Virus record (IMG/VR): IMGVR_UViG_2576861193_000004
Span: 32,001 to 96,000 of that record
From: a virus
Taxonomy: Duplodnaviria; Heunggongvirae; Uroviricota; Caudoviricetes
DNA: 64,000 nt
Direction: 5' to 3' (one strand)
The notes below the pieces were generated by a model that saw only the letters and a program-made list of their open reading frames with translations, made no database searches and was not told the DNA's origin. Below, one piece after another: positions 36,730 to 56,079 of this stretch (positions are counted from its first letter, which is position 1; the number at the start of each line of letters is the position of its first letter). The position numbers and the translations under genes were made by a program.

Positions 36730-37079
36730 GATTAATTCCTTATCGTAAATAACAAATTGTTTTCTTGTTGGTGTTAATTATCGTTGTACGAATAAGGCGT
36801 CAAAGTGGAAAGTTGCGGTAGCCGGACGGGAACAGGTGGGTTTGTCGGTTGCCTGGAGGTAAGAGGTTGGTGTTTTTAGCCTGCGGGAAACAGGATGGTC
36901 ATTTAAGGCCACCAATGCTGATGGCCTTAATAATTATCGCCCTATTACGCTAAGGATCTTTTCCTCAACTGATTTGTTGTTGCGACTAAACTGCCTTGCG
37001 TATCTGATGACAGAAGAGGCGTTTTGCTTTCTGACCAATTCGACTCTTTCCTTCAGGGTTTTCTTGAAATCGCCCATAT

Positions 37080-37454
37080 TTACCACCAGGCGCAGAAGGT
37101 CAGTCTGTTATTGTGAAAGTCGTGGTTCCTGATCAGGTCTTCCACAAGTTTTTTCAGCTTATCCACGTCATGCCAGTAACCTTCGTCGTACTCCTGACTG
37201 CCGAAGAAAAAACCTTCCCGAGTAGGCAAGTACTCTTCGCAATTGCTTTCGTTTATGTGCATCAAATGAGCTTTCAGAAGACAAATGTCATTCATCGTTA
37301 ATTCTAAAAGCTCACAATTTTCGACTTCACCTACGTTGCGCTCCATCCACCCAACGAGCGCATTGAACTTACGGAAGTAAGCAACCTGCTTTCTGGATGC
37401 CTCGTTATTCAGATCGTTTTTAGGCTGTGTCTCGATATAGATATCAAGTCCCAT
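37080..37454 (-). CDS. hypothetical acidic protein
   Basis: ATG 37454 with SD AAGGAAA, conserved palindrome cassette upstream at about 37512-37528. Confidence 0.5.
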   Translation of the reverse strand: MGLDIYIETQPKNDLNNEASRKQVAYFRKFNALVGWMERNVGEVENCELLELTMNDICLLKAHLMHINESNCEEYLPTREGFFFGSQEYDEGYWHDVDKLKKLVEDLIRNHDFHNNRLTFCAWW

Positions 37455-37531
37455 GATGGTTTCCTTATTAAGTTGCTTCAGTGAAATCATTTTCACAAAT
37501 CAGATAAGGCAGAAAACAAATTGTTATCGGG

Positions 37532-37560
37532 CATAATAAAATGGCGCGGTTTACGCGCCA
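37532..37560 (-). terminator. rho-independent terminator
   Basis: Hairpin TGGCGCG-GTT-TACGCGCCA with T-run on minus strand, directly after the stop at 37572. Confidence 0.55.
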
Positions 37561-37571
37561 TTTAAAGAGGA

Positions 37572-37968
37572 TTAAGCGAATACGCTTTCAGGGATTAAGG
37601 TGTCGGCAGGAATGCCAGAGGTAATGCGCAGACCGTACTGGCCAATCCAGGTGGTGCTGGTGTTCAGGCTGGAGGCGAATACGGTGTTAACCATATTCAT
37701 CATGGTTTCAAACACCTCTTCATCAACCTGGCGGAAGTAGTTCTCGATTTTCAGCAGCAGCGGGTCAGTTGCATCGAGAATGGACTGGTATTGAGTCGCG
37801 TACTCGCCGCCGGAGGCATCACCTTTACGCACGATCGTACTGGCCTGGACTTCGGCACCAGTTTCGGTGTTGTACGTAACAACGGTAATTTTTGCCACAT
37901 TCTTACCTTCGGCGGTTTCAGAGGCATAGTAAACATCAACTGTCAGTTTTTCGCGTTTAACGGTCATT
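37572..37968 (-). CDS. hypothetical protein
   Basis: ATG about 37968 (MTVKREKL) with SD GGAGAG. Promoter-like TTGTAA-17-TAGAAT containing the GTAAGTATGTACTTAC palindrome upstream. Confidence 0.5.
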
Positions 37969-38030
37969 TCACTCTCCGTAGTGTCTTGGTTATTTTTATA
38001 TTCTATGATCGTAAGTATGTACTTACAATA

Positions 38031-38059
38031 CAAAAAAGCCCCGTAAGGATGGCGGGGCT
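38031..38059 (-). terminator. rho-independent terminator
   Basis: Minus strand AGCCCCGCCATCCTTACGGGGCTTTTTT, about 35 bp after the stop at 38094. Confidence 0.65.
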
Positions 38060-38093
38060 GTCGTACGGTCGACTAATTACCACTTGCACATTA

Positions 38094-38405
38094 TCAGGCT
38101 ATTGCCATCACTGATGCTCTCTGAATCTCTTGCTGGGCCACGCGGTTAACTTCCATCAAAGCCAGTTCGAGCTGATGTTCCGGCCACATTCTTTGAAATG
38201 CCACCCAGCCTTTTCCACGCTGGCGACGAACATTCATTACATAACGAGTAAAGGTGTTTTTATCGAAAGACACCGCTGTTTCACGGAACAGACGAATAGA
38301 GGTTCCATTGGCAACGATGTCCAGCAAAGTTAATTGAGCAACCAGCGCAGGCTTCTCTTTTCTCTTCTGGTCTTTGTCCAGACCAAGAACCAATGATTTT
38401 TTCAT
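38094..38405 (-). CDS. hypothetical basic protein (possible DNA-binding regulator)
   Basis: ATG 38405 (MKKSLVLG) with SD GGAG, conserved palindrome cassette immediately upstream, terminator downstream. Confidence 0.5.
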   Translation of the reverse strand: MKKSLVLGLDKDQKRKEKPALVAQLTLLDIVANGTSIRLFRETAVSFDKNTFTRYVMNVRRQRGKGWVAFQRMWPEHQLELALMEVNRVAQQEIQRASVMAIA

Positions 38406-38558
38406 CACAACTCCGTAAACAACTTGTTTTCTCAATGGCGTAAATAATACCAGTAAGAAAACGGCTACAAAGCATATTGATCAGGTGCATGAGCGATATG
38501 CAGGTTCTTCCCTGCGGCTATAGAGAAATTAAGCCAGCAATGCTGGCTTTGGTTGGGG

Positions 38559-38888
38559 TTACTCGAATACTTCAAGAAACTCCTGAACGTCCCAATGCTG
38601 GACGAGGTGAAGATAGACCTTAGAAATCACGTCATTTTCGCTATCGCATGTGAAGTAGTACTTCTGGCTGCGGTTGTATGTGTCCACACAAAATTCGCTC
38701 ATATCCATAAAGTCAGCATCTTCACCCATGTCGCAAATCATCAAAGCAGGTGCGTCATCACGAGTCATCAGCTCCAGCACCCATCTTGAATTAATCAGAG
38801 TGGAAGACCAACCTTCCAGCTCATAGAACTGGTCAAACTCTTTTTGAGTCAATTTCTTGATTTGGTTGATGTCGATATTTGCAAACAT
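38559..38888 (-). CDS. hypothetical highly acidic protein (candidate DNA mimic / anti-restriction)
   Basis: 109 aa with about 25 Asp/Glu against 8 Lys/Arg. ATG 38888 with SD AAGGA, conserved palindrome cassette upstream. Confidence 0.5.
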   Translation of the reverse strand: MFANIDINQIKKLTQKEFDQFYELEGWSSTLINSRWVLELMTRDDAPALMICDMGEDADFMDMSEFCVDTYNRSQKYYFTCDSENDVISKVYLHLVQHWDVQEFLEVFE

Positions 38889-39244
38889 AAAGCAATCCTT
38901 AAACAACATGTTTTCTTGATGGTGTTATTATCGCAATAACGCACAGGCGAAAAAGGATTTTATTCCGGTGAATGTGGTTTTGGCAGTGAGTTTTCAGGTT
39001 CAGTACCGAGTACACTTTTTACATTATTCTGATTTAGTGGCCGAAGGTGGCTGGTGGGCAGAATAATCATCTCCCCGAAAACCTACTGAAATCGATTGTG
39101 ACCCGCTGACTGTCTGGCACAATTACGCTGTAGTTGGGCATTCAGAGGGAATCCAGCGGTAAGTAAGTTCGCCTGCACGTGAGCGCCTCTCTTCTTCCCG
39201 CACATTACAGGTGGGTAGCCGCAACTCTCCCTATCGCTATACCG

Positions 39245-39385
39245 GTACGCCGCCGTTCCTGAACCGGCATCGAGCCTTTTCCCGAAATCCACACAGGCAA
39301 CTCGACCGTTTCCCTGAAAACCTCCAGCCGTTCCCCGAAGGCAACCCAGCCGTTTCTGTAGCGGGATGCAGCCTTTTCCCTGTAT
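39245..39385. repeat. iteron cluster 2 (six (A)GCCGTTTCCC-type direct repeats, 22-bp periodicity)
   Basis: Copies at about 39252, 39274, 39305, 39327, 39349, 39371; the last four form an uninterrupted 22-bp tandem array. Confidence 0.75.
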
Positions 39386-39419
39386 GGACCTAAGGCTGAC
39401 CGTAGGGGTGTTACGGGGG

Positions 39420-40330
39420 ATAAAATCAGGAGTTGATTAAATACGAAAAAGGAGGCGACACCCCTCCTTCCCTCCCCACTTATACATACCTGTCTTGTTC
39501 GCTATACATGTTGTGTTTTCTTCGTGTTTTATCTGTCTCAACCTCTCTATAGGCGTTAATGCTCACTCCTTCCAGAATGTTCTATACGGCGACTATTTCT
39601 GTTGGTGAATTGGGTGTGTTGTTTTCTCTGTCGGTGTATGTGGTTTCGTTCGTTTTGCGGTGGTTCTTCTATGGGGTGTTCTCGTCGTTTTGGTGATTGT
39701 TCTTCTCCGTGTATGGAGTAATGGCAGGTGGGCGATTCCTTTCGTTATTGTGTTTGAGTTGTTTGTCTGGAGTGTGAAAGGCTTTTGTAGTTATTCGTGT
39801 ATTGGGTAATGGCGTTTCCCGTGATTGTTATGTTTCGTGTCTTTTGGGATTGAGAGAAACCTTGCGGTTACAGGCTTCGTTGGGGTTTCAGTGATTCTGG
39901 TGTTTCTTCGCTGTTTGGGTAATGGCGTGTCGTGGGTATCGCGCGTATGAATGTTTTCGGATTGCCTGTGAAAGTTAGGTTGGTTGTCCGGTAGCCTGGG
40001 GAGAAGAGGTGGGTCTTTTCGGTAGCCTGCCATAAAGAGGTTGGTTGTTTTGGGGAATGGCATGTGTGTTATTTAGTTGTTTTGTTATGCCTGAAAATAA
40101 GTTGTTTATATGGTTGTGTAACGCAACGGGAACGATTTTGAGCGTGTGTTTTTGTTGGTGGTGTGTTGGGTCGTCTGTGGTGAAAATTGGACGCTGTGGC
40201 GCTGTCTGCTGCGTAGAATTACGGGTATAAGAAGTGATGTGTGAATACGTCAATTTTTTAGACCAAATCGGGTGAAAGCGTTGACGTTTCGTTGATCTGT
40301 TATTCAGTTGTTTTCTTATTGGTATAAACA
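39420..40330. other. ORF-poor, strongly G+T-skewed segment with periodic GGGTAATGGCG-like motifs
   Basis: Plus strand is almost only G and T over about 0.9 kb. Repeated motif at about 39712, 39800, 39918, 40052 and tandem CGGTAGCCTG / GGTTGGTTGT pairs. Track ORFs here have implausible composition. Confidence 0.6.
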
Positions 40331-40450
40331 ACGTTAACCTATTGATATTTAAAGGTGTGATTGCAGGTATGGAAGGAGAGTAGTGGCGATCAACAGATTC
40401 TTATAGAAAAGAATCAAATTGTGACCGCCATTATCAATAAGTTGCAACCG

Positions 40451-41020: not shown

Positions 41021-41172
41021 TCCATCACATAAAAATCGCGTTTATATATTATCAATTTTCTCACTTGTATAACCTAAATACGCATCCGTTTATCAATCCA
41101 CCTTCCACAAACATCAGCTTTAGCTATGAAAAATAACAATCTCAAAGTGAAAACCATTATCATAGGAAACGA

Positions 41173-41358
41173 TTAGATGAGATGGTCTAATTCATCATCT
41201 ATCATTGCTTTAACACTTGAGTCATTAACCCCGTATTGATTTATGAGCCGTTTCAGCTCCGGTGAAAACTGAAGGTAGATATCGTGAGCGTTTTTCACTG
41301 TAGGTTCAACGCCACGCATTTCAAGCGCCTTTAGTAGATATGAGTCTTCTTTAAGCAT
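41173..41358 (-). CDS. hypothetical small protein
   Basis: 61-aa ORF between two early-type genes. Confidence 0.3.
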   Translation of the reverse strand: MLKEDSYLLKALEMRGVEPTVKNAHDIYLQFSPELKRLINQYGVNDSSVKAMIDDELDHLI

Positions 41359-41394: not shown

Positions 41395-41694
41395 TTACCA
41401 TTGCCAGCACTCTAGCCCTTCAACGACCGGTGCACCACAATCAAAATGTACAGAGTCAAAGCCTACATCAAGTACTTTCTGAATGTTAGCAATCGCGCCT
41501 TCGGATATACCATATCGACGCAAGTCATCTTTCCAGACATCATCCTGTAACCCGGCGTGGACAATACAACCGCCATCAATTTGTGAAACCCAATCCAGCT
41601 CATTGCTTGCGATCATGAATCGGCGAGCATCTTCCTCTGATGTATGAGATGAACTGATCAATGCCACCTGGTAGGCTTGGGTAATGTTCAACAT
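41395..41694 (-). CDS. hypothetical protein (early-type cassette gene)
   Basis: ORF preceded by two copies of the AACAAnTTGTT palindrome flanking a GATAAT -10-like hexamer. Starts about 160 bp downstream of the metG terminator. Confidence 0.5.
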   Translation of the reverse strand: MLNITQAYQVALISSSHTSEEDARRFMIASNELDWVSQIDGGCIVHAGLQDDVWKDDLRRYGISEGAIANIQKVLDVGFDSVHFDCGAPVVEGLECWQW

Positions 41695-41702
41695 TTCAAC
41701 AA

Positions 41703-41780
41703 CTCCGAAACAATTTGTTTTCTTATGTGGCTTATTATCTCAATCAACAAAAGGTAGAAAACAAATTGTTTTAGGGTTTG
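41703..41780 (-). promoter_or_regulatory. conserved promoter-palindrome cassette (two AACAAnTTGTT sites flanking GATAAT)
   Basis: GAAACAATTTGTTTTC (41707-41722) and GAAAACAAATTGTTTTA (41757-41773) around a minus-strand GATAAT hexamer. The same cassette is upstream of genes starting at 36729, 37454, 38405, 38888, 55263, 55986 and terS. Confidence 0.6.
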
Positions 41781-41855: not shown

Positions 41856-43889
41856 TTACTTAACCTGGTGGCCTGGTTTAGCACCAGCATCCGGGCTTAA
41901 CAGGAAGATATCTTTCCCGCCGGGGCCAGCAGCCATCACCATGCCTTCGGAGATACCGAAGCGCATTTTACGCGGAGCCAGGTTAGCCACCATAATGGTG
42001 TGACGACCAATCAGTGCCTGTGGGTCTGGATAAGCAGAACGGATGCCTGAGAAGACATTACGCTTTTCACCACCGAGATCCAGTGTCAGACGCAGCAGTT
42101 TGTCAGAACCTTCGACAAACTCCGCGTTTTCAATCAGCGCCACACGCAGGTCAACTTTGGCGAAGTCGTCAAAGGTGATGGTTTCCTGAATCGGGTCGTC
42201 AGCCAGTGGGCCAGTTACCGGTGCAGCTGTGGCTTTCACTTCTTCTTTGGATGCTTCCACCAGTGCTTCCACCTGTTTCATATCGATACGGTTATACAGT
42301 GCCTTGAACGGATTCACTTTATGGCCCAGCAGCGGTTGCTGGATACCATCCCAGGTCAGTTCTGTATTCAGGAATGCTTCTGCACGTTCAGTCAGTTTCG
42401 GCAGTACCGGTTTCAGGTACGTCATCAGCACGCGGAACAGGTTAATGCCCATAGAGCAAATCGCCTGCAGGTCGGCATCGCGGCCTTCCTGCTTCGCCAC
42501 CACCCACGGAGCCTGTTCATCAACATAGCGGTTAGCCAGGTCAGCCAGTGACATGATTTCACGGATAGCTTTGCCAAATTCGCGGCTTTCCCACGCTTCA
42601 CCAATCACTTCAGCGGCATCAGTGAAGGTTTTGTACAGTTGCGGGTCAGCCAGTTCGCTTGCCAGCACGCCGTCAAAACGTTTGTTGATAAAACCTGCAT
42701 TACGGGAGGCCAGGTTAACCACTTTGTTCACGATATCGGCATTCACGCGCTGAACAAAATCTTCCAGGTTGAGATCGATATCATCAATGCGCGAAGAGAG
42801 TTTCGCAGTGTAGTAGTAACGCAGGCTGTCGGCGTCAAAATGATTCAGCCAGGTGCTGGCTTTAATAAAGGTGCCGCGAGACTTGGACATCTTCGCGCCG
42901 TTCACCGTCACATAGCCGTGAACAAACAGGTTGGTCGGCTTGCGGAAGTTGCTGCCTTCCAGCATGGCAGGCCAGAACAGGCTGTGGAAGTAAACGATAT
43001 CTTTACCGATGAAGTGGTACAGCTCGGCGGTGGAGTCTTTCTTCCAGTATTCGTCGAAGCTGGTAGTGTCGCCGCGTTTGTCGCACAGATTCTTGAAGGA
43101 ACCCATGTAGCCAATCGGCGCGTCCAGCCAGACGTAGAAATATTTGCCCGGTGCGTTCGGAATTTCAAAACCGAAGTACGGCGCATCGCGGGAGATATCC
43201 CACTGTTGCAGGCCAGATTCAAACCACTCCTGCATTTTGTTTGCCACCTGCTCCTGCAACGCACCGCTGCGGGTCCATGCCTGCAACATTTCGCTGAAAG
43301 AGGGCAGATCAAAGAAGAAGTGTTCAGAATCACGCATTACCGGCGTAGCGCCAGAAACCACCGATTTCGGCTCGATCAATTCAGTCGGGCTATATGTTGC
43401 GCCGCAGACTTCACAGTTATCGCCGTATTGATCTGGCGCTTTACATTTAGGACAGGTGCCTTTTACAAAACGGTCCGGCAGGAACATGCCTTTTTCCGGG
43501 TCGTACAACTGAGAGATAGTGCGGTTTTTAATAAAACCGTTCTCTTTCAGGCGAGTATAGATAAGCTCAGACAACTGACGGTTCTCTTCGCTGTGCGTCG
43601 AGTGATAGTTGTCATAGCTGATGTTAAAGCCTGCGAAATCAGTCTGGTGTTCCTGACTCATTTCGCCAATCATCTGCTCCGGTGTGATACCAAGCTGCTG
43701 TGCTTTCAGCATGATCGGCGTACCGTGGGCATCGTCGGCACAGATGAAATTAACCTCGTGGCCGCGCATTCGCTGGTAACGAACCCAGACATCAGCCTGG
43801 ATGTGCTCCAGCATATGGCCGAGGTGGATTGAGCCGTTAGCGTACGGCAGCGCGCACGTCACCAGAATTTTCTTCGCGACTTGGGTCAT
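41856..43889 (-). CDS. metG: methionine--tRNA ligase
   Basis: 677-aa product essentially identical by eye to E. coli MetG ([29 protein letters not shown]...KMSKS...). Track ORF begins at an upstream in-frame start; true ATG at 43889. Confidence 0.95.
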
Positions 43890-44046
43890 AGTAGGCATTA
43901 CTTCTTTGTAGTGAAAAGGGGCTTGATAGTAACAAAATGGCCTTATGTCTGCCATGTGATAACAGCATTTCTCATAAATGATTAAATGTCGTAGCTGGAG
44001 TACACTACAAGGCGACAATTGCGCAAATTAAAATAAAGGAGACGGG

Positions 44047-45147
44047 ATGAGCGAGTCCAAATCGCCGGATGCCCTGAGAGCAATGGTAGCCGGTACGCTG
44101 GCTAATTTTCAGCACCCAACCCTGAAACACAACCTGACTACGCTTAAAGCGTTACACCATGTTGCGTTGATGGATGACACACTGCATGTCGAACTAATCA
44201 TGCCTTTCGTGTGGAATAAGCCTTTTGAAGACCTGAAAGAGCAATGTAGTGGTGATCTGCTCCGTATCACTGGCGCAAAGGCTATTGACTGGAAGCTGTC
44301 GTACAACATTGCCACGCTTAAGCGCGTCAAAAACCAACCAGGCATTAATGGCGTTAAGAACATTATCGCCGTCAGCTCAGGCAAGGGCGGCGTGGGTAAA
44401 TCCTCCACGGCGGTAAACCTGGCACTGGCGTTGGCTGCTGAAGGTGCGAAAGTTGGTATTTTGGATGCCGATATCTATGGTCCATCAATTCCAACCATGC
44501 TGGGCGCGGAAAACCAACGTCCAACCTCACCTGACGGTACTCACATGGCACCTATCATGTCTCATGGCCTGGCAACCAACTCTATTGGTTATCTGGTCAC
44601 CGACGACAATGCAATGGTGTGGCGTGGACCGATGGCCAGCAAGGCGCTGATGCAGATGTTGCAGGAAACTCTATGGCCTGATCTGGACTATCTCGTTCTC
44701 GATATGCCGCCGGGCACTGGTGATATTCAGTTGACGCTGGCGCAGAACATTCCTGTAACTGGTGCGGTTGTGGTAACTACGCCGCAAGACATCGCGCTGA
44801 TCGATGCGAAGAAAGGCATTGTGATGTTCGAAAAAGTCGAAGTGCCGGTACTGGGTATCGTCGAAAACATGAGTGTGCATATTTGCAGTAACTGCGGTCA
44901 TCACGAGCCAATTTTTGGCACCGGTGGCGCACAGAAACTGGCCGAGAAATACAACACGCAGTTGTTAGGCCAAATGCCACTTCATATCTCTCTTCGTGAA
45001 GATCTGGATAACGGAACACCAACCGTTATTAGTCGTCCAGATAGCGAATTTACGGCTATTTATCGTGACCTCGCAGATCGCGTTGCTGCCCAAATGTATT
45101 GGCAAGGTGAAGTAATACCTGGCGAAATCGCATTCCGCGCAGTGTGA
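44047..45147 (+). CDS. apbC: iron-sulfur cluster carrier protein ApbC/Mrp
   Basis: P-loop GKGGVGKSSTAVNLA, CxxC motif (CSNCGHHEP), divergent from metG as in E. coli. Confidence 0.95.
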   Translation: MSESKSPDALRAMVAGTLANFQHPTLKHNLTTLKALHHVALMDDTLHVELIMPFVWNKPFEDLKEQCSGDLLRITGAKAIDWKLSYNIATLKRVKNQPGINGVKNIIAVSSGKGGVGKSSTAVNLALALAAEGAKVGILDADIYGPSIPTMLGAENQRPTSPDGTHMAPIMSHGLATNSIGYLVTDDNAMVWRGPMASKALMQMLQETLWPDLDYLVLDMPPGTGDIQLTLAQNIPVTGAVVVTTPQDIALIDAKKGIVMFEKVEVPVLGIVENMSVHICSNCGHHEPIFGTGGAQKLAEKYNTQLLGQMPLHISLREDLDNGTPTVISRPDSEFTAIYRDLADRVAAQMYWQGEVIPGEIAFRAV

Positions 45148-45184: not shown

Positions 45185-45574
45185 CTACATCACGGGACAA
45201 TCATCAAACTCGCCACTTCTTGCGTCGTTGATAATGTGAGTGATCACACCAAACACGGCATTGCTGCCCGTGCATCCATCGTCATCCTTTGGCAATGCTT
45301 CCTTCTTACCGGTTCTTAAATCCTCCAGATGCTGACGTGGGTACTTCCGGTATCTTTTTACGCGATATTCCCCATCCAGAGCGCATACAAGCAGAGAACC
45401 ATCAACCGGGGTAAGTGAGGAATCGACCACCAGCAATGCACCCTGTAATATTCCCTCACGATGATGACTATCAGCTGCCCTCATGAAGTAGGTCGCTGAA
45501 GGATGTCTAATTATCTGCTGATCAAGAGAAATACGGCTCTCAGCATAATCCGCCGCAGGAGAAGGGAAGCCCAT
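45185..45574 (-). CDS. UmuD'-like (HumD-like) S24 peptidase-fold protein lacking the N-terminal cleavable arm
   Basis: Aligns with UmuD from about residue 25 (GFPSPAADY...HPSATYF). Ser (DSH) and Lys (RVKRY) positions retained. In-frame stop 5 codons upstream of ATG, SD GAGGTG. Confidence 0.8.
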   Translation of the reverse strand: MGFPSPAADYAESRISLDQQIIRHPSATYFMRAADSHHREGILQGALLVVDSSLTPVDGSLLVCALDGEYRVKRYRKYPRQHLEDLRTGKKEALPKDDDGCTGSNAVFGVITHIINDARSGEFDDCPVM

Positions 45575-45592
45575 AGCGTTTTCACCTCAGAG

Positions 45593-45612
45593 TACTGTTT
45601 ATCCATACAGTA
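45593..45612 (-). promoter_or_regulatory. LexA (SOS) box
   Basis: TACTGTTTATCCATACAGTA matches CTGT-N8-ACAG; located about 20 bp upstream of the umuD'-like ATG. Confidence 0.75.
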
Positions 45613-45672
45613 TACATTAAAGATGCTTGAAGTGTGCAATAGCGCGATGCTTTGCGCTCGCCTGGTGGCGCG

Positions 45673-45936
45673 TTATTTTTTGGCTATATCTTCTTTCTGA
45701 TATACCGGATCGTTTCCTTTTGGCAGCAGGAGGCTTAACTGCCGGTAGTGCCGTAGCCGTTCCATGAAATAGGTGCGCAGGTTCTCAGGTTGCTCACGGG
45801 CTACCTGTTCCGCTATGACGGGTATGTTCAATCGCTCTTTGTAGGCAACCCCCCTGGCAGCCAGGTCAACGTTAACTTTATTCCTTTCTTCCTGGCTTTT
45901 AGCTGCTATGTTCCATTCGTTCATATTAAATCCCAT
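45673..45936 (-). CDS. hypothetical protein
   Basis: 87-aa ORF upstream of the LexA box and umuD'-like gene. Start uncertain (ATG 45936 or 45924), weak SD. Confidence 0.35.
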
Positions 45937-46392
45937 CCAGAATAATTGAATAACGGCTATTATTTAGTCGCCGCAATATCTTCAAAGTTTTTTTTCTCAC
46001 CCCATTGCTTTTTGCGCACAGCTTATCTGGCTTGCGGTGCGCGAAATGTAAATTCGCCTTCAGAGTTATCCACAAAGTTATGCACTTGCAACGGGGCCAT
46101 TTTCCTCATACCGTGTTTGCACACACAGGAAATGGATATTTTATTAATTGAATTTTATTAAATAATAATGATAAGGAGAAAATTTGAGATGTAATCATGA
46201 CATTAATAGATAGGGCCTGCATTACAGGCCCCAACTACATCAAGGAATTCACAGTTCCCTGATTTTTATACCGAAAACATGTGCCGTAAGTTCACGTTAA
46301 CGACTTTCTTTCACCGAATCCAACTATATAGAGGTTGGGTTTCTACGTCAACGTGAGAGCACGCAGCTTTACATTAGACGAGGATTACCCTG

Positions 46393-46530
46393 ATGATTGT
46401 ATTTTTTCAGTTTCTAAGTGCATTTTTAAATGCGCCTGTTCTTAGCCAAGTGCTGGCGATTGTCTTCATCGTGGTTCTGATATGGTTTTTCAAGTCAGTG
46501 ATAAACAGAGGCGTGCGCTGGCTTATTTAA
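46393..46530 (+). CDS. small hydrophobic peptide (45 aa, single predicted TM helix)
   Basis: ATG 46393 preceded by SD GAGGA at 9 nt. Sequence MIVFFQFLSAFLNAPVLSQVLAIVFIVVLIWFFKSVINRGVRWLI. Below the ORF-track size cutoff. Confidence 0.3.
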   Translation: MIVFFQFLSAFLNAPVLSQVLAIVFIVVLIWFFKSVINRGVRWLI

Positions 46531-47062
46531 TGTCGCGATGAGATATTAATTCCCTTGCTGTTTAACCATTTTTTGTGTGTGCTGGTGAGCGTGTGAAGGC
46601 TCAATTTGTTGCCCACCAGTATTTACTATTTCTAAGCTCCACAGTGTCACTTCCGCACAAACAACTTAGCGCGGAATCAGTATTCGGCCCAAGATGTAAA
46701 AAGCCAACCTGCGTTATGGTTCGCATTTCCAAATAGTGTTCTGAACGCCCTTGCCGGGCGCGAGATGTAGATTAGCGTTCACGCTATGCTGATATACGGC
46801 TTTAGACTTTCCATATTGCTGACAGGCTTTATCTGCGGTTTTTTGCAGGCTATCCAGCCCATACCAGCCATCAGACTGGATGCTTACCTTTTCACCGTCA
46901 TTGTATTGCACCATCGCGCACCCAAACATGGCTATCATCGCACCGACAATACCACTTTTCCAAAAAGCTCTAATTAGGTCATTCGTTACCTAATGTCCGA
47001 ACTGCTAAAGCATCCAAGTTGCTGTAGAATCACCGCCAATTACATAAGCCTGAAATAAGTGG

Positions 47063-48625
47063 ATGAAAATGACAAGTATTCAACAACGTGCAGAGCTTCA
47101 TCGTCAAATCTGGCAAATTGCTAACGATGTCAGGGGTTCGGTCGATGGATGGGATTTTAAGCAATACGTTCTGGGCGCACTTTTCTACCGTTTTATCAGC
47201 GAAAATTTTTCCAGTTATATTGAAGCCGGTGATGACAGTATCTGTTATGCGAAACTGGATGACAGCGTAATTACTGATGACATTAAAGACGATGCCATCA
47301 AAACTAAAGGCTACTTCATCTACCCCAGTCAGCTTTTCTGCAACGTAGCTGCGAAAGCAAATACTAATGACAGACTGAATGCAGATTTAAACAGCATCTT
47401 CGTTGCTATCGAAAGTTCTGCTTACGGTTATCCTTCAGAAGCAGACATCAAAGGTTTGTTTGCTGATTTCGATACCACCAGTAACCGCCTGGGTAACACC
47501 GTTAAAGATAAAAATGCCCGCCTGGCTGCGGTTCTGAAAGGGGTTGAAGGGTTAAAACTTGGTGACTTCAACGAACATCAGATTGACCTGTTCGGTGATG
47601 CCTATGAGTTCCTGATTTCTAACTATGCGGCAAATGCCGGTAAGTCAGGCGGTGAGTTCTTTACACCGCAGCACGTCTCCAGGCTGATTGCACAACTGGC
47701 AATGCATGGCCAGACCCACGTTAACAAAATCTACGACCCGGCAGCGGGTTCCGGCTCACTGTTGTTGCAGGCGAAAAAACAGTTTGATAACCACATCATC
47801 GAAGAAGGCTTTTTCGGTCAGGAAATCAACCATACGACCTATAACCTGGCGCGTATGAACATGTTTTTGCACAATATCAACTACGACAAGTTTGATATCA
47901 AGCTGGGTAATACACTGACTGAGCCGCACTTCAGAGATGAAAAACCGTTTGACGCCATCGTATCTAACCCACCGTATTCGGTGAAATGGATTGGCAGCGA
48001 TGACCCGACGCTGATTAACGATGAGCGTTTTGCCCCGGCTGGCGTTCTGGCCCCCAAATCCAAAGCTGACTTTGCGTTTGTATTACATGCACTGAACTAT
48101 CTTTCTGCCAAAGGTCGTGCTGCGATTGTCTGCTTCCCGGGTATTTTTTACCGTGGCGGCGCGGAGCAGAAAATCCGTCAGTATCTGGTCGATAATAACT
48201 ATGTCGAAACCGTGATTTCACTGGCACCGAACCTGTTCTTTGGCACCACCATTGCAGTAAACATTCTGGTGCTGTCTAAACATAAAACGGATACCAACGT
48301 TCAGTTTATTGACGCCAGCGAACTGTTCAAAAAAGAGACTAACAACAATATCCTGACCGATGCCCATATCGAACAGATTATGCAGGTATTTGCCAGCAAG
48401 GAAGATGTTGCTCATCTGGCGAAATCTGTCACGTTTGAGACCGTTGTCGCGAATGACTATAACCTGTCGGTAAGCAGCTATGTGGAAGCGAAAGATACTC
48501 GCGAAATTATCGATATCGCTGAGTTGAATGCAGAACTGAAAACCACGGTCAGCAAAATCGACCAGTTGCGTAAAGATATTGATGCGATTGTGGCTGAAAT
48601 TGAAGGCTGCGAGGTGCAGAAATGA
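47063..48625 (+). CDS. hsdM: type I restriction-modification methyltransferase subunit
   Basis: N-terminal HsdM pattern ([10 protein letters not shown]...[17 protein letters not shown]), N6-adenine MTase motif NPPYS, 520 aa as recalled for EcoR124I HsdM. Confidence 0.9.
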
Positions 48626-49857
48626 GCGAGTTGAGTTATCTGGAAAAATTGCTGGATGGGGTTGAGGTTGAGTGGTTGCCATTGGGGAAACTAGGTGAAT
48701 TAGTTCGTGGAAATGGATTGCCTAAGTCTGATTTTACCGAATCTGGGGTTCCTGCCATACACTATGGTCAGATATATACTTTTTACGGATTATCTACTGA
48801 AACAACAAAGTCATTTGTTTCCCATGAAACGGCGAAGAAGCTTAAAAAGGTTAACTCTGGTGATGTTGTTATTACTAACACAAGCGAAAATTTTACTGAT
48901 GTTGGTAAGGCGCTTGTTTATCTAGGTAAAGAGCAAGCTGTTACTGGTGGCCATGCAACTATTTTCAAGCCAAATAGCACTATTATTGGGAAATACTTTG
49001 CCTATTTCACGCAAACGGATTCTTTTGCAAATGAGAAAAGGAAATACTCCAAGGGAACTAAAGTAATTGATGTGTCTGCATCGGATATGGCGAAAATTAT
49101 TATCCCTATCCCCTGTCCGGAAAATCCCAAAAAATCCCTTGCTATCCAGTCTGAAATCGTTCGGATTCTGGACAAATTTACTGCACTTACCGCTGAGCTT
49201 ACCGCTGAGCTTACCATGCGTAAAAAACAGTACAACTACTATCGCGACCAATTGCTGAGTTTTAAAGAAGGTGAGGTTGAGTGGAAAACTTTGGGAGAAG
49301 TGGCTCAATACTCGAAAACAAGAATTAGTTTCGAACTACTTGATGAAAGGAATTATGTTGGCGTAGATAATCTGCTGCAAAACAGAGCAGGAAAATCATT
49401 ATCTAATCATGTACCCACATCAGGTAAATTAACGGAGTTTATACCTAACGATATACTGATTGGGAATATCCGCCCATATTTGAAAAAAATTTGGCAAGCA
49501 GATTGTATCGGTGGAACAAATGGCGATGTATTGGTTATTCGTTGCATAGATAGCTCAATAAATACCAGATATCTATATCAGATTTTGGCAGATGACAAAT
49601 TCTTTGAATACAACATGCAGCATGCTAAAGGAGCAAAAATGCCGCGTGGCAGTAAAGAGGATATAATGAAATACCCAATCCCTGTACCGCCACTCACCTT
49701 GCAAGCTCGCATTGTCGAAATACTCAACAAATTCGATACCCTGACAAACTCCATCACTGAAGGTCTTCCGCGTGAAATCGAATTACGCCAGAAACAATAC
49801 GAATACTACCGTGATTTACTGTTCAGTTTCCCAAAACCTGAAACTGTCAGTAATTAA
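48622..49857 (+). CDS. hsdS: type I restriction-modification specificity subunit, type IC-like
   Basis: Two target-recognition domains separated by a central conserved region carrying the TAELTAEL repeat. C-terminal YYRDLL repeat of the conserved motif. Overlaps hsdM stop. Confidence 0.9.
49186..49209 (+). repeat. 2 x 12-bp tandem repeat CTTACCGCTGAG encoding TAEL-TAEL in HsdS
   Basis: Perfect tandem duplication inside the hsdS central conserved region. Confidence 0.9.
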
Positions 49858-49978
49858 TTGACCATTGCTACCGACCGGGCCACCTTAACACCCGGTCTGT
49901 ATATAGACTATTTTTTACGCGCCGGAAGTCACTCTTAACGCCCTTCCGGCCCTTGCCAGGCGGCACAAAGGATGCGCT

Positions 49979-52900
49979 ATGACTCATCAAACACACACCA
50001 TTGCTGAATCCAATAACTTTATCGTCCTTGATAAGTACATCAAAGCTGAGCAAACAAGCGACAGCTACCAGAGCGAATCGGACCTGGAACGTGAACTGAT
50101 TCAGGACCTGCGGAATCAGGGTTATGAATTTATTTCCGTAAAATCACAGTCGGCAATGCTGTCCAATGTTCGGGAACAGCTTCAGAGCCTCAATGGTGTG
50201 ATGTTTAATGACAGCGAGTGGCGGCGCTTCACGGAGCAGTATCTGGACAATCCCAGCGATGGTATTCTGGATAAGACCCGTAAAATCCATATCGACTATA
50301 TCTGCGACTTTATTTTTGACGACGGGCGTCTTGAGAACATCTATCTGATCGATAAAAAGAATCTCATGCGCAACAAAGTGCAGATTATCCAGCAGTTTGA
50401 ACAGGCAGGTTCTCATGCTAACCGTTATGACGTCACGATCCTGGTTAATGGCTTGCCTCTGGTGCAAATCGAACTGAAAAAGCGCGGCGTGGCGATTCGT
50501 GAGGCTTTCAACCAGATACATCGTTACAGCAAAGAGAGTTTTAACAGCGAAAATTCCCTGTTTAAGTATCTGCAACTGTTTGTCATTTCTAACGGCACCG
50601 ATACCCGTTATTTTGCCAACACCACAAAGCGCGATAAAAACAGTTTTGACTTCACCATGAACTGGGCGAAATCAGACAACACGCTGATTAAAGACCTCAA
50701 AGACTTTACCGCTACCTTTTTCCAGAAACATACCCTGCTTAATGTTCTGGTGAACTACAGCGTGTTTGACAGTAGTCAGACGCTACTGGTGATGCGACCG
50801 TACCAGATTGCAGCTACCGAACGGATCTTATGGAAAATCAACAGCTCCTATAAAGCGAAAAACTGGTCTAACCCCGAAAGCGGTGGCTTTATCTGGCACA
50901 CCACTGGTTCCGGTAAAACACTGACCAGCTTTAAAGCCGCGCGTCTGGCAACTGAACTGGACTTTATTGATAAAGTCTTCTTCGTGGTCGACAGGAAAGA
51001 CCTCGATTACCAGACCATGAAGGAATATCAGCGTTTTTCGCCAGACAGCGTCAACGGCTCGGAAAATACCGCAGGTCTTAAACGAAATCTGGATAAGGAC
51101 GATAACAAAATTATCGTCACCACTATTCAGAAACTTAATAACCTGATGAAAGCAGAAAGCGACCTGCCTGTATACAATCAGCAAGTGGTGTTTATATTTG
51201 ATGAATGCCACCGCAGCCAGTTTGGAGAAGCGCAGAAAAACCTGAAGAAGAAATTCAAACGCTATTATCAGTTTGGTTTTACCGGCACCCCTATTTTCCC
51301 GGAAAATGCCTTAGGCTCAGAAACGACCGCCAGCGTATTTGGTCGTGAATTGCATTCGTATGTAATTACCGATGCGATTCGTGACGAAAAAGTGCTCAAA
51401 TTCAAGGTGGACTACAACGATGTGCGGCCACAGTTTAAGTCTTTAGAGACAGAAACTGACGAGAAAAAACTGAGTGCGGCTGAAAATCAGCAGGCGTTTC
51501 TTCATCCCATGCGTATTCAGGAAATCACGCAATATATCCTGAACAACTTCCGCCAGAAGACTCACCGTACTTACCCCGGCTCCAAAGGTTTTAATGCCAT
51601 GCTGGCAGTAAGCAGCGTGGATGCCGCGAAAGCCTATTACGCGACGTTTAAACGGTTACAAGAGGAAGCCGCTAATAAATCTGCTACCTATAAACCACTG
51701 CGTGTTGCGACAATCTTCTCCTTTGCCGCCAATGAAGAACAAAATGCCATTGGTGAAATTTCCGATGAAACTTTTGATACCAGCGCAATGGACAGCAGTG
51801 CTAAAGAGTTTCTTGACGCTGCAATTCGTGAGTATAACAGCTATTTTAAAACTAACTTCAGCACCGACAGTAACGGTTTTCAGAACTACTATCGTGATTT
51901 AGCCCAACGGGTTAAAAATCAGGATATCGATCTGTTAATTGTCGTTGGGATGTTTTTAACCGGCTTCGACGCTCCAACATTGAACACGCTATTCGTCGAT
52001 AAAAACTTGCGTTTTCACGGCCTGATGCAGGCATTCTCCCGTACCAACCGCATTTATGACGCTACTAAAACCTTCGGTAACATCGTCACTTTTCGGGATC
52101 TGGAACGCTCAACCATTGATGCCATAACGCTGTTTGGTGATAAAAATACTAAAAATGTGGTGTTAGAAAAGAGTTATGCAGAGTATATGGAAGGCTTTAC
52201 TGATGCTGCTACAGGTGAAGCTAAACGCGGCTTTATGGCAGTAGTTTCAGAACTGGAACAACGGTTCCCTGACCCTGCCAGTATTGAAAGTGAAAAAGAG
52301 AAGAAAGACTTCGTTAAACTGTTTGGCGAATACCTGCGTGCCGAGAACATCCTGCAAAACTATGATGAATTTGCCACGCTGAAAGCCCTGCAACAAATCG
52401 ATCTTAGCGATCCTGTTGCGGTAGAAAAATTCAAAGAAGAACATTATGTGGATGATGAAAAGTTCGCTGAATTGCAAACGATTCGTCTCCCTGCTGAACG
52501 CAAGATTCAGGATTATCGTTCTGCCTATAACGATATTCGTGACTGGCAGCGCCGCGAGAAAGAAGCTGATAAAAAAGAAAAATCAACCACTGACTGGGAT
52601 GACGTGGTTTTTGAGGTCGATTTGCTGAAGTCTCAGGAAATAAACCTGGATTATATCCTTGGACTGATTTTCGAACACAACAGACAAAATAAAGGCAAGG
52701 GCGAAATGATCGAAGAGGTCAAACGCTTAATTCGTTCAAGCCTGGGGAACCGGGCGAAAGAGGGCCTGGTGGTCGATTTTATTCAGCAAACGAACCTGGA
52801 TGATTTACCAGACAAAGCCAGCATCATTGACGCGTTCTTTACCTTTGCTCAACACGAACAGCTACGTGAAGCAGAAGCGTTGATTAAAGAAGAAAATCTC

Positions 52901-53095
52901 AATGAAGAGGCGGCGAAACGCTATATTCGCACGTCTTTAAAACGCGAATACGCCACCGAAAATGGCACAGAATTAAACGAGACATTACCAAAACTTAGTC
53001 CGTTAAACCCGCAATATAAAACGAAAAAACAGACGGTTTTCCAGAAAATCGTCACGTTTATTGAAAAGTTCAAAGGAGTAGGTGGGCAGATATAG
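49979..53095 (+). CDS. hsdR: type I restriction enzyme endonuclease/translocase subunit
   Basis: 1038 aa with SF2 helicase motifs (TGSGKT, DECHRS, GFTGTP). Confidence 0.9.
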
Positions 53096-53153
53096 TGTAT
53101 TAATCTGAACCAGATCTGGCAGATATCTGTGCAAATTGCAGATAGCTGTCAGA

Positions 53154-53564
53154 TCAAGCCATCGTAGGGATGTCTGTATCCACTTTGAACTCCGGTACAC
53201 CAACGAACTCTTTAACCTTCATCTGATAGCCGGTTCTGTCAGTTTTGATGACTTCCTGCTTGCCCTCGATAAATTGCTCACGCCACTCGTCGCGACGGGA
53301 AGCTGGCATGATCAGCAAAACGTTAGTCATATCCGTGACCTTCCTCCAGTACTCGGCCCAAATATTCTGTTTCACCCATTCCAGATCGACTTTATCCAGC
53401 CAAGCTCGATTCAAACGTGAGCGATCTTCATCTGGTCGATGGTTTAGTCTCAGCAGGCGATTAATCATGTTGTGGCGTTCGTCGCCATAAACGAAGTCGT
53501 GTACCTGATACATGAAGGCGATCTCTTTCTCGCACTCGGCCACGATTTCGTGGATGACATTCAT
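53154..53564 (-). CDS. hypothetical protein
   Basis: 136-aa ORF convergent with hsdR, SD AGGAA before ATG 53564. Confidence 0.5.
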   Translation of the reverse strand: MNVIHEIVAECEKEIAFMYQVHDFVYGDERHNMINRLLRLNHRPDEDRSRLNRAWLDKVDLEWVKQNIWAEYWRKVTDMTNVLLIMPASRRDEWREQFIEGKQEVIKTDRTGYQMKVKEFVGVPEFKVDTDIPTMA

Positions 53565-53740
53565 TTCCTGCCGATAGTCGATAGTCGATAGCAGCGTTTG
53601 AGTTGGGATCGTCGATGATGGAAAGGGCTGTATTCATAATAGCACCATTAAGAAGTGATTTGTTTAATGGTGCTATTATTTCAAAAATGAAAAGGTACTA
53701 AATAGAAATAAACCGGCAATCCTTCAAATAAAGGCATTGT

Positions 53741-54355
53741 CTAATCATACTTGGAGGTATTTATCACCAGAATTTTGTTTGTATAAATCTTCTTAATATC
53801 CCATGTGACATTACCGGAATACCATTGGCCGTTATACACTTGGTTTCCAGTTGCACCTGTCATAGTTACATAGACAGGTCTGTCGTAATCGGTTCGTCTA
53901 TAGTTATATACCCCAACCATAGCAGGCATTACTGCGCACGGATACCCCATATCTATTGTAAATTGTGGGTCAGAAATAGTGATAAGTTTCGCATCAAGGG
54001 GCATCATCTCACCGTGATACACCATTGCGCCTGCGCTGTTATACATGGCAATGCCATAGCCAGAATGTGGTAACACCATATCAGAAAAAGCATAAACTGT
54101 TATTGTTCCGGGGCTACCATTTACCTGATGCAATCTGAGAGCATTGTATCCGTTACTATTTTCATGAATAAACATCATGTTCGCCTTATTACTGCTTTTT
54201 ATGAAGAAAAAGCATGATTTGTTTGATGGGATTGATGTTTTAAAAACAGAACCTTTAGATGCAGACATTGTCCCTTTATTAATCAGATTTTGCGGAGTAA
54301 ATTCTGGACTCATCCACAAACCTCCATCTGATTGAGTAATTGACATCCCGAACAT
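53741..54355 (-). CDS. hypothetical beta-rich protein (Asn/Tyr/Gly/Thr-rich)
   Basis: AT-rich ORF. Track start 54412 is TTG. ATG at 54355 lies 2 nt after the stop of the upstream 93-aa gene. Confidence 0.45.
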   Translation of the reverse strand: MFGMSITQSDGGLWMSPEFTPQNLINKGTMSASKGSVFKTSIPSNKSCFFFIKSSNKANMMFIHENSNGYNALRLHQVNGSPGTITVYAFSDMVLPHSGYGIAMYNSAGAMVYHGEMMPLDAKLITISDPQFTIDMGYPCAVMPAMVGVYNYRRTDYDRPVYVTMTGATGNQVYNGQWYSGNVTWDIKKIYTNKILVINTSKYD

Positions 54356-54357
54356 AA

Positions 54358-54639
54358 TTATCCCCAGTATGTGTATATGTAAGAACCAAGCCCCGTATAT
54401 AAATTTGACCAACTAACCGTATTTCCATTAATAGTAACTTTCGGAACAGGTAAATTGATGTAGTTGTCGTTGTTAAGAGGCATCAATGACCACACGGCAT
54501 GAAGTGATTTACCCGGTGGCGGATTAGAGTACGTCTTAGAGCCTGATGACGCCGTAAATCGATCAAGAAAAAAAATAGGTGTAAGGAAGCCAGTAACGTT
54601 AATTCCTTTATTGTTGTAAATCCCTGTACCGTATGCCAT
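54358..54639 (-). CDS. hypothetical protein (93 aa)
   Basis: ATG 54639 with SD AGGGTG, terminator-like hairpin upstream, coupled to the following gene. Confidence 0.45.
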   Translation of the reverse strand: MAYGTGIYNNKGINVTGFLTPIFFLDRFTASSGSKTYSNPPPGKSLHAVWSLMPLNNDNYINLPVPKVTINGNTVSWSNLYTGLGSYIYTYWG

Positions 54640-54693
54640 TTTTCACCCTTGTTTTTATCAACACAATATGGCCGATCATGCGGCCATATCAGA

Positions 54694-55263
54694 TCAATTA
54701 GAGCTTTGAAAGACTTTGTGTGGTTGTGTTGCGAGGTTATGTCGATGGCTTAACTCACGCATCATGTCTTCAAGGCGACTCTTTGTGTCGTCGAGTTGGT
54801 CGGCCATTGCTCCCAAAAGCTGACGAACGGCCATCGGATCATCGCTGTTTAGTGATGGCATTTTATAACCCGCCTGAGAAGACATAAGATTGAACGCAGA
54901 CATCAACATCGTTAGAGAGGATTTAAGCCCAGCAATTTCACGATCTTTGCTGGCAATAATCGCCTCACTCTTGTTAGTGTCATCAGTACGTTGAGTCTCG
55001 CTCACCATATCCAAAGTCGCCTGCAACTTATCAGCGAGCTCTTTTTCAGCAAGATAATGAACGCCGAAATGATGTGCTAAAGCTACAACCTGAGTTGGTT
55101 CTTCAAAGGTGGAATTAAAATTAAGTACTGTAAACAGTCTCTCAAATATGGAAACGTCTTCTGTTCCCCGAACAATACCTAACATTTTGACAAGTTCATT
55201 AGCATCCATTTCTTCGAATAGGGCGTTTTGTTCATCAGCTATTGCTTTGCATTTCTCGCACAT
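54694..55263 (-). CDS. hypothetical protein with N-terminal CxxC
   Basis: 189-aa ORF (MCEKCK...) preceded by the conserved promoter-palindrome cassette. Confidence 0.5.
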   Translation of the reverse strand: MCEKCKAIADEQNALFEEMDANELVKMLGIVRGTEDVSIFERLFTVLNFNSTFEEPTQVVALAHHFGVHYLAEKELADKLQATLDMVSETQRTDDTNKSEAIIASKDREIAGLKSSLTMLMSAFNLMSSQAGYKMPSLNSDDPMAVRQLLGAMADQLDDTKSRLEDMMRELSHRHNLATQPHKVFQSSN

Positions 55264-55560
55264 GTGTTTTCCTTAATTCTTAAACAAGTTGTTTTCTTAT
55301 TGGGTTTATTGTGATGTGGCATATAAGGGGAGCAAGCTAAACGTAAAGGTGCAAACTCTCTATTTTGGTCAACGAAACACAAGGGCCATTTGGCCCTTGC
55401 CATTAACACGTTGCTTTACGGACTAGCGGATAGGCGAAGTAGATCGCCAAACCAATGAGGACGCCATCAGAAATGACAGACATCATCTTTCCCGTAAAAT
55501 CCACCAACACCGCCATCACCAGAAGAGCAATGACGGTCACAAGCCGGAATCTCTCAAGCA

Positions 55561-55986
55561 TTAGAGATAAGCATCCAGTGACAACTGAAGCGCCTGGGCG
55601 ATCTTTTTCAGTGCCTGCTCTTCTTGTTCACCAATGCCGTCCTGGTCGGCAATATCAAGGCACAGACACAGAACATCGACCGCCTCTGGAGTGCCCGCAA
55701 TATCAGCCAGCTCACGCATAGCCTGCGCATTCGCAGAACGAGGGGACGCTTCGTAACGAGCACGGATATTGGCGCTCATTTGGGCAATTTCACCAGCAAA
55801 CGGAGAAAACGCAGGCAGAGCTGCAATTGTCTTCTCAAGAATGGCAATTTCTTTTGCGTCACATGTGCCGTCGGCATAGGAGATCATGTACGCGCCCCAC
55901 ACGGTGGCCTCAACCGCATCACGGTTCTCCATTTTTTTGACTTCGATAACAGCTTTACGAGTTTTCTTTTTGAAGAAACCTAACAT
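55561..55986 (-). CDS. TerB-like (tellurite-resistance TerB fold) protein
   Basis: 141 aa with a TerB-like helical pattern. Preceded by the conserved palindrome cassette. Confidence 0.5.
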   Translation of the reverse strand: MLGFFKKKTRKAVIEVKKMENRDAVEATVWGAYMISYADGTCDAKEIAILEKTIAALPAFSPFAGEIAQMSANIRARYEASPRSANAQAMRELADIAGTPEAVDVLCLCLDIADQDGIGEQEEQALKKIAQALQLSLDAYL

Positions 55987-56079
55987 GTGTTTTCCTTTTG
56001 TTATTTGTCAAAACAAGTTGTTTTATAGTTTCATAAATTGCTTACGCAAAGATGGTCAATGCATATGCACTAACAACCG

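Follow-up and report, generated by a model that had tools for sequence, protein, structure and literature searches.

The early, replication and accessory transcription units of SSU5/pHCM2-type phage-plasmids share a standard header, which we interpret as a family-specific promoter-operator module with a regulon of about 20 transcription units per genome. The header was found in a 64,000-nucleotide stretch of viral DNA (IMG/VR record IMGVR_UViG_2576861193_000004, positions 32,001 to 96,000), from now on referred to as the window. Each copy, here called a cassette, consists of a -10-like hexamer of the GATAAT type, the palindrome AAACAA-N-TTGTTT and a Shine-Dalgarno sequence (SD), located ahead of a gene. 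The repetition of this unit is real and non-random. As to its role, we give about even chances to the palindrome being an operator that is recognized as duplex DNA, near +14 and/or -38 of the promoter, by a dimeric regulator, most likely a repressor.

Abundance and distribution of the cassette

Six exact copies of AAACAA-N(1-2)-TTGTTT are present in the window (at 26752, 38417, 41708, 41759, 55282 and 56011) compared with 0.03 expected from shuffled sequences, and allowing up to 2 mismatches to the 14-mer yields 25 strand-matches versus 4.4 expected. Looser matching identifies 11-12 sites, all within 26.7-56.1 kb of the window, while its structural module contains no palindrome sites even under these conditions. 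A 200-kb sample of the Escherichia coli K-12 chromosome holds neither an exact palindrome nor a copy of AAGAAAACAA, whereas five phage-plasmid sequences carry 8-20 per 100 kb. Searching 5,426 complete E. coli genomes with a 52-nt consensus cassette returned 791 places in 246 genomes (4.5%), every one on a plasmid and none on a chromosome. According to the preliminary description of this DNA, a similar motif density in random E. coli intergenic DNA would count against it; the K-12 sample holds no exact palindrome and the chromosomes no cassette, which favours the original observation. Chance and a general E. coli intergenic motif can both be ruled out based on the shuffles, the K-12 sample and the genome scan.

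The best matches to the 30-46 kb region of the window are circular E. coli plasmids of 105-116 kb with 97-99% identity that encode terminase, portal, capsid and tail genes. The same region is 97.7% identical to Escherichia phage Cyrano and about 69% identical to Salmonella phage SSU5, with Klebsiella phage-plasmids as further, more distant matches. Judged by these matches, the window belongs to a phage-plasmid of the SSU5/pHCM2 type with a size of about 110 kb, and the metG and apbC genes it contains are cargo in the accessory region of that element. The small genes had earlier been described as flanking a chromosomal metG-apbC pair; according to the plasmid and phage matches, the flanks are phage-plasmid DNA and represent neither E. 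coli chromosome nor an integrated prophage. That the cassette is present on either side of metG-apbC reflects the fact that the two flanks are parts of a single element.

The motif recurs throughout the family: relatives from E. coli, Salmonella, Klebsiella, Kluyvera and Buttiauxella carry about 20 sites per genome, as counted for SSU5, pJN2-26 and Cyrano. Scanning IMG/VR for an exact 17-mer gave more than 119 loci, and all loci with more than one palindrome are SSU5-like by blastn; single-hit loci lacking such similarity look like chance occurrences. Cassettes are further found in Kluyvera and Buttiauxella contigs, in a contig labelled Yersinia pestis and in two divergent Klebsiella lineages (NZ_CP031578.1 and LR890700.1), in which other regulatory features have changed. 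In complete relatives, the cassette heads parA, a dnaB-like helicase gene, a cobT-like gene, nrdB, a DUF4942 methyltransferase-like gene, terS and many small genes. The regulon is consequently not one of small uncharacterised genes only, as had been thought, while the underlying idea of one shared cis-element ahead of many separately transcribed units is supported. In the literature searched, we found no description of the cassette motif, its binding protein or gene control in the SSU5 family. Phage-plasmids of this type are common in Enterobacteriaceae, and phage-plasmids have been reported to carry resistance genes. The cassette offers a testable regulon, a 21-bp bait for the regulator and a marker for annotating transcription units, and, should the regulator turn out to be a repressor, a means of access to the switch that governs lysis-lysogeny and plasmid maintenance in the family.

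Geometry of the promoter and the palindrome

Alignment of 35 gene-proximal sites, drawn from three complete genomes (SSU5, pJN2-26 and Cyrano), places the highest information content in the block AAGAAAACAA.TTGTTTA, with diverging flanks. The -10-like hexamer, which is GATAAT or a variant with AAT or TAT as its last three bases, begins 25 bp upstream of the palindrome centre. Over all unique family sequences collected, hexamer starts peak at -25 or -26 (143 of 287 sites), while the spacing between palindrome centre and ATG is variable, ranging from 15 to 55 nt. Given constant spacing to the -10 and variable spacing to the start codon, the element appears to be positioned by the promoter and not by translation initiation. 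The aligned sites have no -35 consensus, and TGn precedes the hexamer in 13 of the 35. Upstream of the hexamer lies a T-rich tract (ccTTTTcTTAT) that in several units directly follows a terminator hairpin and reads as its T-tail. The aligned sites contain hairpin, T-tract and -10, that is, a stem-loop terminator directly followed by a sigma-70-type promoter, repeated at high similarity in intergenic regions.

If the hexamer is the -10 element, the palindrome centre would lie near +14. A second class, comprising 15 sites, carries the cassette 21-mer (AAGAAAACAAGTTGTTTAAGG) in inverted orientation, abutting a hairpin that marks the preceding gene's end. In units with both classes, the centres are 51 bp apart, which would place the upstream copy near -38. 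Among unique family sequences, 28 of 47 pairs of neighbouring palindromes have a spacing of exactly 51 bp, 3 a spacing of 50 bp and 8 a spacing of 25 bp. In the Klebsiella plasmid NZ_CP031578.1, the upstream copy is always located 19 bp from the -10.

Cassette units in the window

A near-identical unit had been claimed for eight genes. This holds for the genes starting at 36729, 38405, 38888, 41694 and 55263, where the order is -10-like hexamer, about 9 nt, AAGAAAACAAnTTGTTT, SD and ATG, while the units of the genes starting at 55986 and 37454 and of terS deviate from it. The headers identified are the following (window coordinates):

36750-36782, minus strand: cassette of gene 36247-36729; GATAAT at 36777-36782, palindrome AAACAATTTGTTA at 36750-36762 with one mismatch, SD, ATG at 36729
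37489-37526, minus strand: header of gene 37080-37454; upstream-type (-38) palindrome at 37514-37526, -10-like GAAAAT at 37489-37494, 19 bp downstream
38417-38449, minus strand: cassette of gene 38094-38405; TATTAT at 38444-38449, palindrome at 38417-38429, SD GGAG, ATG at 38405
38901-38935, minus strand: cassette of gene 38559-38888; TGC-GATAAT at 38927-38935, palindrome AAACATGTTGTTT at 38901-38913, SD AAGGA, ATG at 38888
41708-41771, minus strand: paired-operator cassette of gene 41395-41694 (DUF5983, Pfam); palindromes at 41759-41771 (about -38) and 41708-41720 (about +14), TGA-GATAAT at 41734-41742 between them
55282-55313, minus strand: cassette of gene 54694-55263; CACAAT at 55308-55313, palindrome at 55282-55294, SD, ATG at 55263
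56011-56042, minus strand: cassette of the TerB-family gene 55561-55986; AGCAAT at 56037-56042, palindrome at 56011-56023 (7+7, AAAACAAcTTGTTTT), SD, ATG at 55986
26731-26808, minus strand: late-operon header before terS (26079-26711); weak hexamer CCTAAT at 26803-26808, palindromes at 26777-26789 and 26752-26764, hairpin at 26731-26750
40095-40325, minus strand: degenerate cassette pieces; half-site leader ACCAATAAGAAAACAAC at 40308-40322, weak palindrome at 40095-40107

The cassette of gene 36247-36729 has orthologous counterparts at SSU5 94531, pJN2-26 29088 and Cyrano 98431. The unit at 41694, located directly downstream of metG, has palindrome centres 51 bp apart, and its upstream copy had been missed in the earlier account. 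At 37454, the palindrome is found on the upstream side of the -10-like hexamer, beside the hairpin that terminates the gene before it, and the leader carries none, so this unit is not near-identical to the others; its 19-bp palindrome-to-hexamer spacing recurs in NZ_CP031578.1. The 55986 unit retains palindrome and SD, with AGCAAT in place of GATAAT. In the terS header, the two palindromes are 25 bp apart, an arrangement found in 8 unique family sequences, and the copy at 26777-26789 has one mismatch; a terminator-like hairpin (AGAGCGC..GCGCTCT), a T-run and the SD follow. The half-site leader at 40308-40322 marks the start of an A+C-rich, apparently non-coding stretch. That most units have their own terminator was partly borne out: a strict scan found 16 terminator-like sites in 35.5-42 kb, where 6.6 are expected, yet only 4 of them follow cassette units.

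Proposed recognition of the palindrome as duplex DNA

A hairpin in the 5' untranslated region (UTR) had been put forward as the alternative to a palindrome-binding factor. Predicted cassette leaders show no extra structure relative to shuffled sequences (z from -0.02 to +1.5), the palindrome alone does not fold, and cassette leaders have no Rfam match. Among 468 unique sites, 65 are changed in the left half-site only, 150 in the right only and 9 in both, 3 of the latter still being complementary; the central base is random. Half-sites thus vary independently, a pattern that rules out selection for base pairing and agrees with protein recognition of two half-sites. An RNA hairpin, riboswitch or attenuator was rejected based on the folding z-scores, the lack of covariation and the absence of an Rfam match. 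The fixed distance to the -10, the -38 copies located outside leaders and the 51-bp phasing (about five helical turns) argue for recognition of duplex DNA. With fixed promoter geometry and independent half-sites, the palindrome-binding factor of the preliminary description is supported as the best reading.

Under this reading, each module would comprise, in order, the terminator hairpin and T-tract of the preceding gene, a sigma-70-type -10 that sometimes carries TGn, a short initial transcribed region, the 13-bp palindrome and the ribosome-binding site. A dimeric protein would read the palindrome as duplex DNA, centred near +14, and in many units the inverted copy 51 bp upstream (about -38) would overlap the -35 region. 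Binding at either position, or at both, would obstruct RNA polymerase, so that the units stay silent during plasmid-prophage life. Release in lytic development would then turn on the replication, nucleotide-metabolism and accessory genes in concert, and with them the terS promoter, which carries two operators and a terminator.

Expression during lysogeny was assessed using the per-gene lysogen RNA sequencing (RNA-seq) data of the LF82/Cyrano study (PMC9928086, supplementary file 2), in which Cyrano was inducible by ciprofloxacin. The 13 genes located directly after a cassette have a median of 7.8 normalised counts, compared with 9.8 as the median over the prophage. Among the genes that the lysogen does express are CYRAN_45, a helix-turn-helix (HTH) 'putative repressor' (96), CYRAN_117 (114), toxin-antitoxin pairs and repA. 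Cassette units are therefore off in lysogeny, parA excepted, and repression would be the probable cause.

Several points weigh against a repressor reading a symmetric DNA operator. Both the +14 and the -38 position rest on the assumption that GATAAT acts as the -10. Conservation is asymmetric, with the left flank AAGAA conserved as strongly as the core, and several NZ_CP031578.1 leaders keep just AAGAAAACAAC, followed by the SD. A symmetric operator would not account for this asymmetry, and, given the AAGAA flank and the AAGAAAACAAC-only leaders, the transcribed leader itself may account for part of the conservation. Despite its cassette, the parA operon is expressed at 5-9x background in the lysogen (parA, 49.8), and silence of the remaining cassette genes would also fit an activator-dependent promoter, in agreement with both repression and activator dependence. 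Sequence comparisons do not single out a binding protein, and the candidates other than CYRAN_45 are weakly annotated. CYRAN_45 itself was rejected as the reader since it is absent from SSU5 and its own promoter has another palindrome, GGTAAGTnCTTACC.

Possible RNA-level recognition by an FljA-like protein

The main rival, which we consider rather unlikely, is an operator that acts at the RNA level: an FljA-like tandem-Sm protein would bind the A-rich/U-rich leader (AAGAAAACAAnUUGUUUAAGG) beside the SD, block translation and destabilise the mRNA. The candidate is encoded in the window as follows:

33882-34406, plus strand: FljA-family protein, 174 aa; sole annotated regulator in the window and candidate RNA-level reader

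This protein is a full-length member of PF03614 (E 9e-81), about 35% identical to a plasmid-borne phase-1 flagellin repressor, and was confidently modelled as two tandem Sm/Hfq-like domains with no HTH. The gene is core to the family, being found on 835 PLSDB plasmids that include 345 from Klebsiella and 62 from Yersinia (Y. pestis among them), and it is transcribed in the Cyrano lysogen. Most Klebsiella and Yersinia hosts lack flagella, a point in favour of some target different from fliC. According to the part of PMC2652032 that cites Bonifield & Hughes 2003 and Yamamoto & Kutsukake 2006, Salmonella FljA acts post-transcriptionally on fliC mRNA, blocking its translation. Family membership, the Sm/Hfq-like fold and the fliC precedent together make recognition of the leader attractive, and further points in its favour are the unstructured leaders, the stronger conservation of the left half and its flank relative to the right half, and the existence of leaders with a half-site only.

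The geometry speaks against this explanation, with the element fixed to the -10 and not to the SD or ATG, and with inverted -38 copies lying outside any 5' UTR yet in exact 51-bp phasing. Cassette mRNAs are at background and not merely untranslated, the E. coli fliC leader contains no motif match, and an RNA-binding protein would give no reason for reverse-complement symmetry. The FljA-like protein also falls to 42% and 25% identity in lineages where the palindrome is invariant. Co-occurrence of the gene with the motif is uninformative because both are core to the family. A broader proposal, in which the FljA-like protein would be a global post-transcriptional regulator reading about 20 leaders and Salmonella FljA a domesticated phage-plasmid regulator, we regard as unlikely.

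Possible activator dependence of the promoters

Silence of the cassette genes in the lysogen also bears on a second alternative, in which the cassettes would be activator-dependent, phage-specific promoters and the palindrome the box for a positive factor or RNA-polymerase appropriator (T4 MotA-type or class II style) present in lytic growth only. The absence of a -35 consensus and the TGn in 13 of 35 sites are compatible with such promoters, the upstream copy at about -38 is near class II activator positions, and the same header precedes the late operon. One possible factor, the 88-residue protein p88 (see below), is likewise not expressed in the lysogen. We nevertheless consider activation quite unlikely: most sites of the window, and generally those of E. 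coli and Salmonella lineages, lie solely downstream of the -10, at about +14. Proteins bound near +14 repress bacterial promoters. Expression of parA in the lysogen from such a header is also difficult to reconcile with a factor limited to lytic growth.

Possible roles of recombination and host factors

The composite of terminator and promoter and the clustering of cassettes in the variable accessory region raise the possibility that the repeats are a recombination module only. In this scenario, they would resemble the promoter-early stem-loop (PeSL) cassettes of T4-like phages, be kept alike by duplication or gene conversion and supply homology for accessory-gene shuffling, with no dedicated palindrome-binding factor. 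PeSL cassettes provide precedent (PMC2839356, PMC4122927), and some homology breakpoints relative to SSU5 and pJN2-26 lie no more than 65 bp from a palindrome. The breakpoints near palindromes number 3 of 11 and 3 of 19, where about 1.2 and 2.1 are expected, and are not clearly above chance. Conservation is centred on the half-sites around a random central base and is invariant across genera while the surrounding cassette diverges, a pattern that points to a functional footprint and not to simple shared ancestry. Recombination as the sole role is therefore very improbable in our view, although it is compatible with a duplex-DNA operator and could be an additional effect. The paper checked gave no support for a relation to integron attC-like sites.

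Finally, the palindrome might be read by a host factor, that is, a DNA-binding protein conserved in Enterobacterales that couples expression to host physiology. This would explain why the motif is invariant in elements from E. coli, Salmonella, Klebsiella, Kluyvera and Buttiauxella even though phage-encoded candidates diverge or are missing. The emptiness of the K-12 sample and of the E. coli chromosomes argues against it, and we know of no E. coli regulator whose site fits the palindrome (considering IHF, Fis, PhoP, NrdR, GntR-type and LacI-type sites). From what we take to be the IHF consensus, WATCAANNNNTTR, the palindrome differs at 2 of 9 specified positions. We regard a host factor as the most improbable of the explanations considered.

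Candidate DNA-binding proteins and a second palindrome

Besides the FljA-like protein, two small proteins of the window were considered as readers of the duplex palindrome:

26908-27174, minus strand: p88, 88 aa, candidate DNA reader; weak winged-helix matches, 74-89% conserved in every lineage examined
31726-32004, plus strand: p92, 92 aa, weaker candidate DNA reader; ribbon-helix-helix-like sequence pattern, orthologue CYRAN_117 expressed in the lysogen

Two proteins with ParB domains (ParB_N) are encoded at 28733-30099 and are 61-90% conserved in all lineages. Based on their conservation, p88 and the two ParB-domain proteins are compatible with a role as reader. The putative DNA-facing residues of p92 differ between lineages, its profile searches gave nothing significant, and its AlphaFold2 (AF2) model was too poor to use (pLDDT 52). 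A possible autoregulatory site of p92 at 31735-31751 is not kept in SSU5 or pJN2-26 and was treated as chance.

A second dispersed palindrome, tAGGTAAGTACTTACCTa, which the CYRAN_45 promoter carries as GGTAAGTnCTTACC, has 7 loose matches in the window, compared with 0.13 expected; the SSU5, pJN2-26 and Cyrano genomes each hold 10-13. Its positions in the window are:

24809-24824: second palindrome
56905-56920: second palindrome
58101-58116: second palindrome
59159-59174: second palindrome
4394, 21386 and 23302: weaker matches

In Cyrano, a copy is located at 42606-42619. One copy precedes CYRAN_45 by 32 nt, and others lie within the late operon. The second palindrome is largely lost from the NZ_CP031578.1 and LR890700.1 Klebsiella lineages, where the AAACAA palindrome is unchanged; the former thus behaves as a lineage-specific immunity operator and the latter as a family-wide element. 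The core of the second palindrome resembles what we take to be the SlmA-binding site, GTGAGTACTCAC. A 64-bp divergent region at 30100-30163, between the ParB-like operon and the UvsW-helicase/p92/FljA-like operon, contains a TATAAT with which a second-palindrome variant, ATCACTTACTTAT, overlaps; this variant is conserved in SSU5, pJN2-26 and NZ_CP031578.1.

A large inverted repeat (GACCTGCTTCTGTATATA ... TATATACAGAAGCAGGTC) surrounds an AT-rich core in three places, at 26810-26904 and 58432-58544 of the window and at 31157-31213 of Cyrano. The linear records of Cyrano and SSU5 have their ends within one of these copies (window 26845/26846), and another is found just after the par operon. The repeat could be a cos or centromere-like element.

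Comparison with known systems

In kind, the cassette resembles the dispersed operators of the P1 C1 repressor and, in architecture, the PeSL cassettes. P1 C1 binds more than 17 operators dispersed over the phage-plasmid genome, each an asymmetric 17-mer, ATTGCTCTAATAAATTT. Both systems belong to plasmid prophages and place one short sequence at many promoters (replication, methylation and accessory genes) that are silent in lysogeny. Here, however, the sequence is a 6-N-6 palindrome at fixed +14 and/or -38 positions that differs from ATTGCTCTAATAAATTT, and the window proteins scanned include no C1-like family match. As stated in the preliminary description, the palindrome matches none of the LexA, lambda, 434 or P1 C1 operator sequences. 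PeSLs share with the cassette an intergenic stem-loop terminator and sigma-70-type promoter before many small genes of unknown function in variable regions and have been documented at indel junctions (PMC2839356, PMC4122927), but no embedded palindromic operator has been described for them.

The likeness to Salmonella FljA-fliC consists of the FljA-family protein encoded in the window and a cassette leader that adjoins the ribosome-binding site; in contrast to that system, the element tracks the promoter, also occurs upstream of it and is missing from the fliC leader. Dispersed sites are also a feature of KorB, a ParB-family protein of the IncP plasmid RK2 (operator OB, TTTAGCSGCTAAA), and of the SopB sites of the phage-plasmid N15. 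As in these systems, a 13-bp 6-N-6 palindrome is scattered over the plasmid, partly at about -39/-40 of promoters and with global repression as the outcome, here a probable one, and two ParB-domain proteins are encoded. The operator sequences of KorB are unrelated, and the separate, larger inverted repeat looks more centromere-like. Morons of lambdoid prophages are single genes, each with a promoter and terminator to itself, and are active in the prophage state. Cassette genes are similarly bracketed; their background expression in the Cyrano lysogen contradicts a moron-like role. The term moron is used in the study of Cyrano (PMC9928086).

Cargo and further repeats

The host-like metG and apbC genes keep their native divergent intergenic region. 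The cargo set is contained in 41857-45139 and 45185-53095 of the window and, next to metG and apbC, includes a HumD-like peptidase, a DNA polymerase III theta homologue and a complete type I restriction-modification system (hsdM, hsdS and hsdR). Lysogen counts for Cyrano show expression of the apbC copy (92) and weak expression of metG (16).

The A+C-rich stretch that begins after the half cassette extends for about 700 nt on the minus strand (window 39600-40300) and is G-poor (A about 40%, C about 30%, G about 12%). It contains no convincing open reading frame (ORF), ends at a strong terminator at 39446-39472 and has compositional counterparts in SSU5, pJN2-26 and NZ_CP031578.1. It may represent a long non-coding RNA.

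Four copies of a 36-nt repeat (GCCTG..GG..A.AGG.TGGT) form two tandem pairs at 36842-36905 and 39985-40051, each located upstream of a cassette or cassette remnant. Two copies of a terminator-like hairpin (GCGCCCACTATGGGCGC followed by a T-run), 88% identical to each other, are found at 35355-35386 and 35626-35657 and flank a small ORF at 35364-35630.

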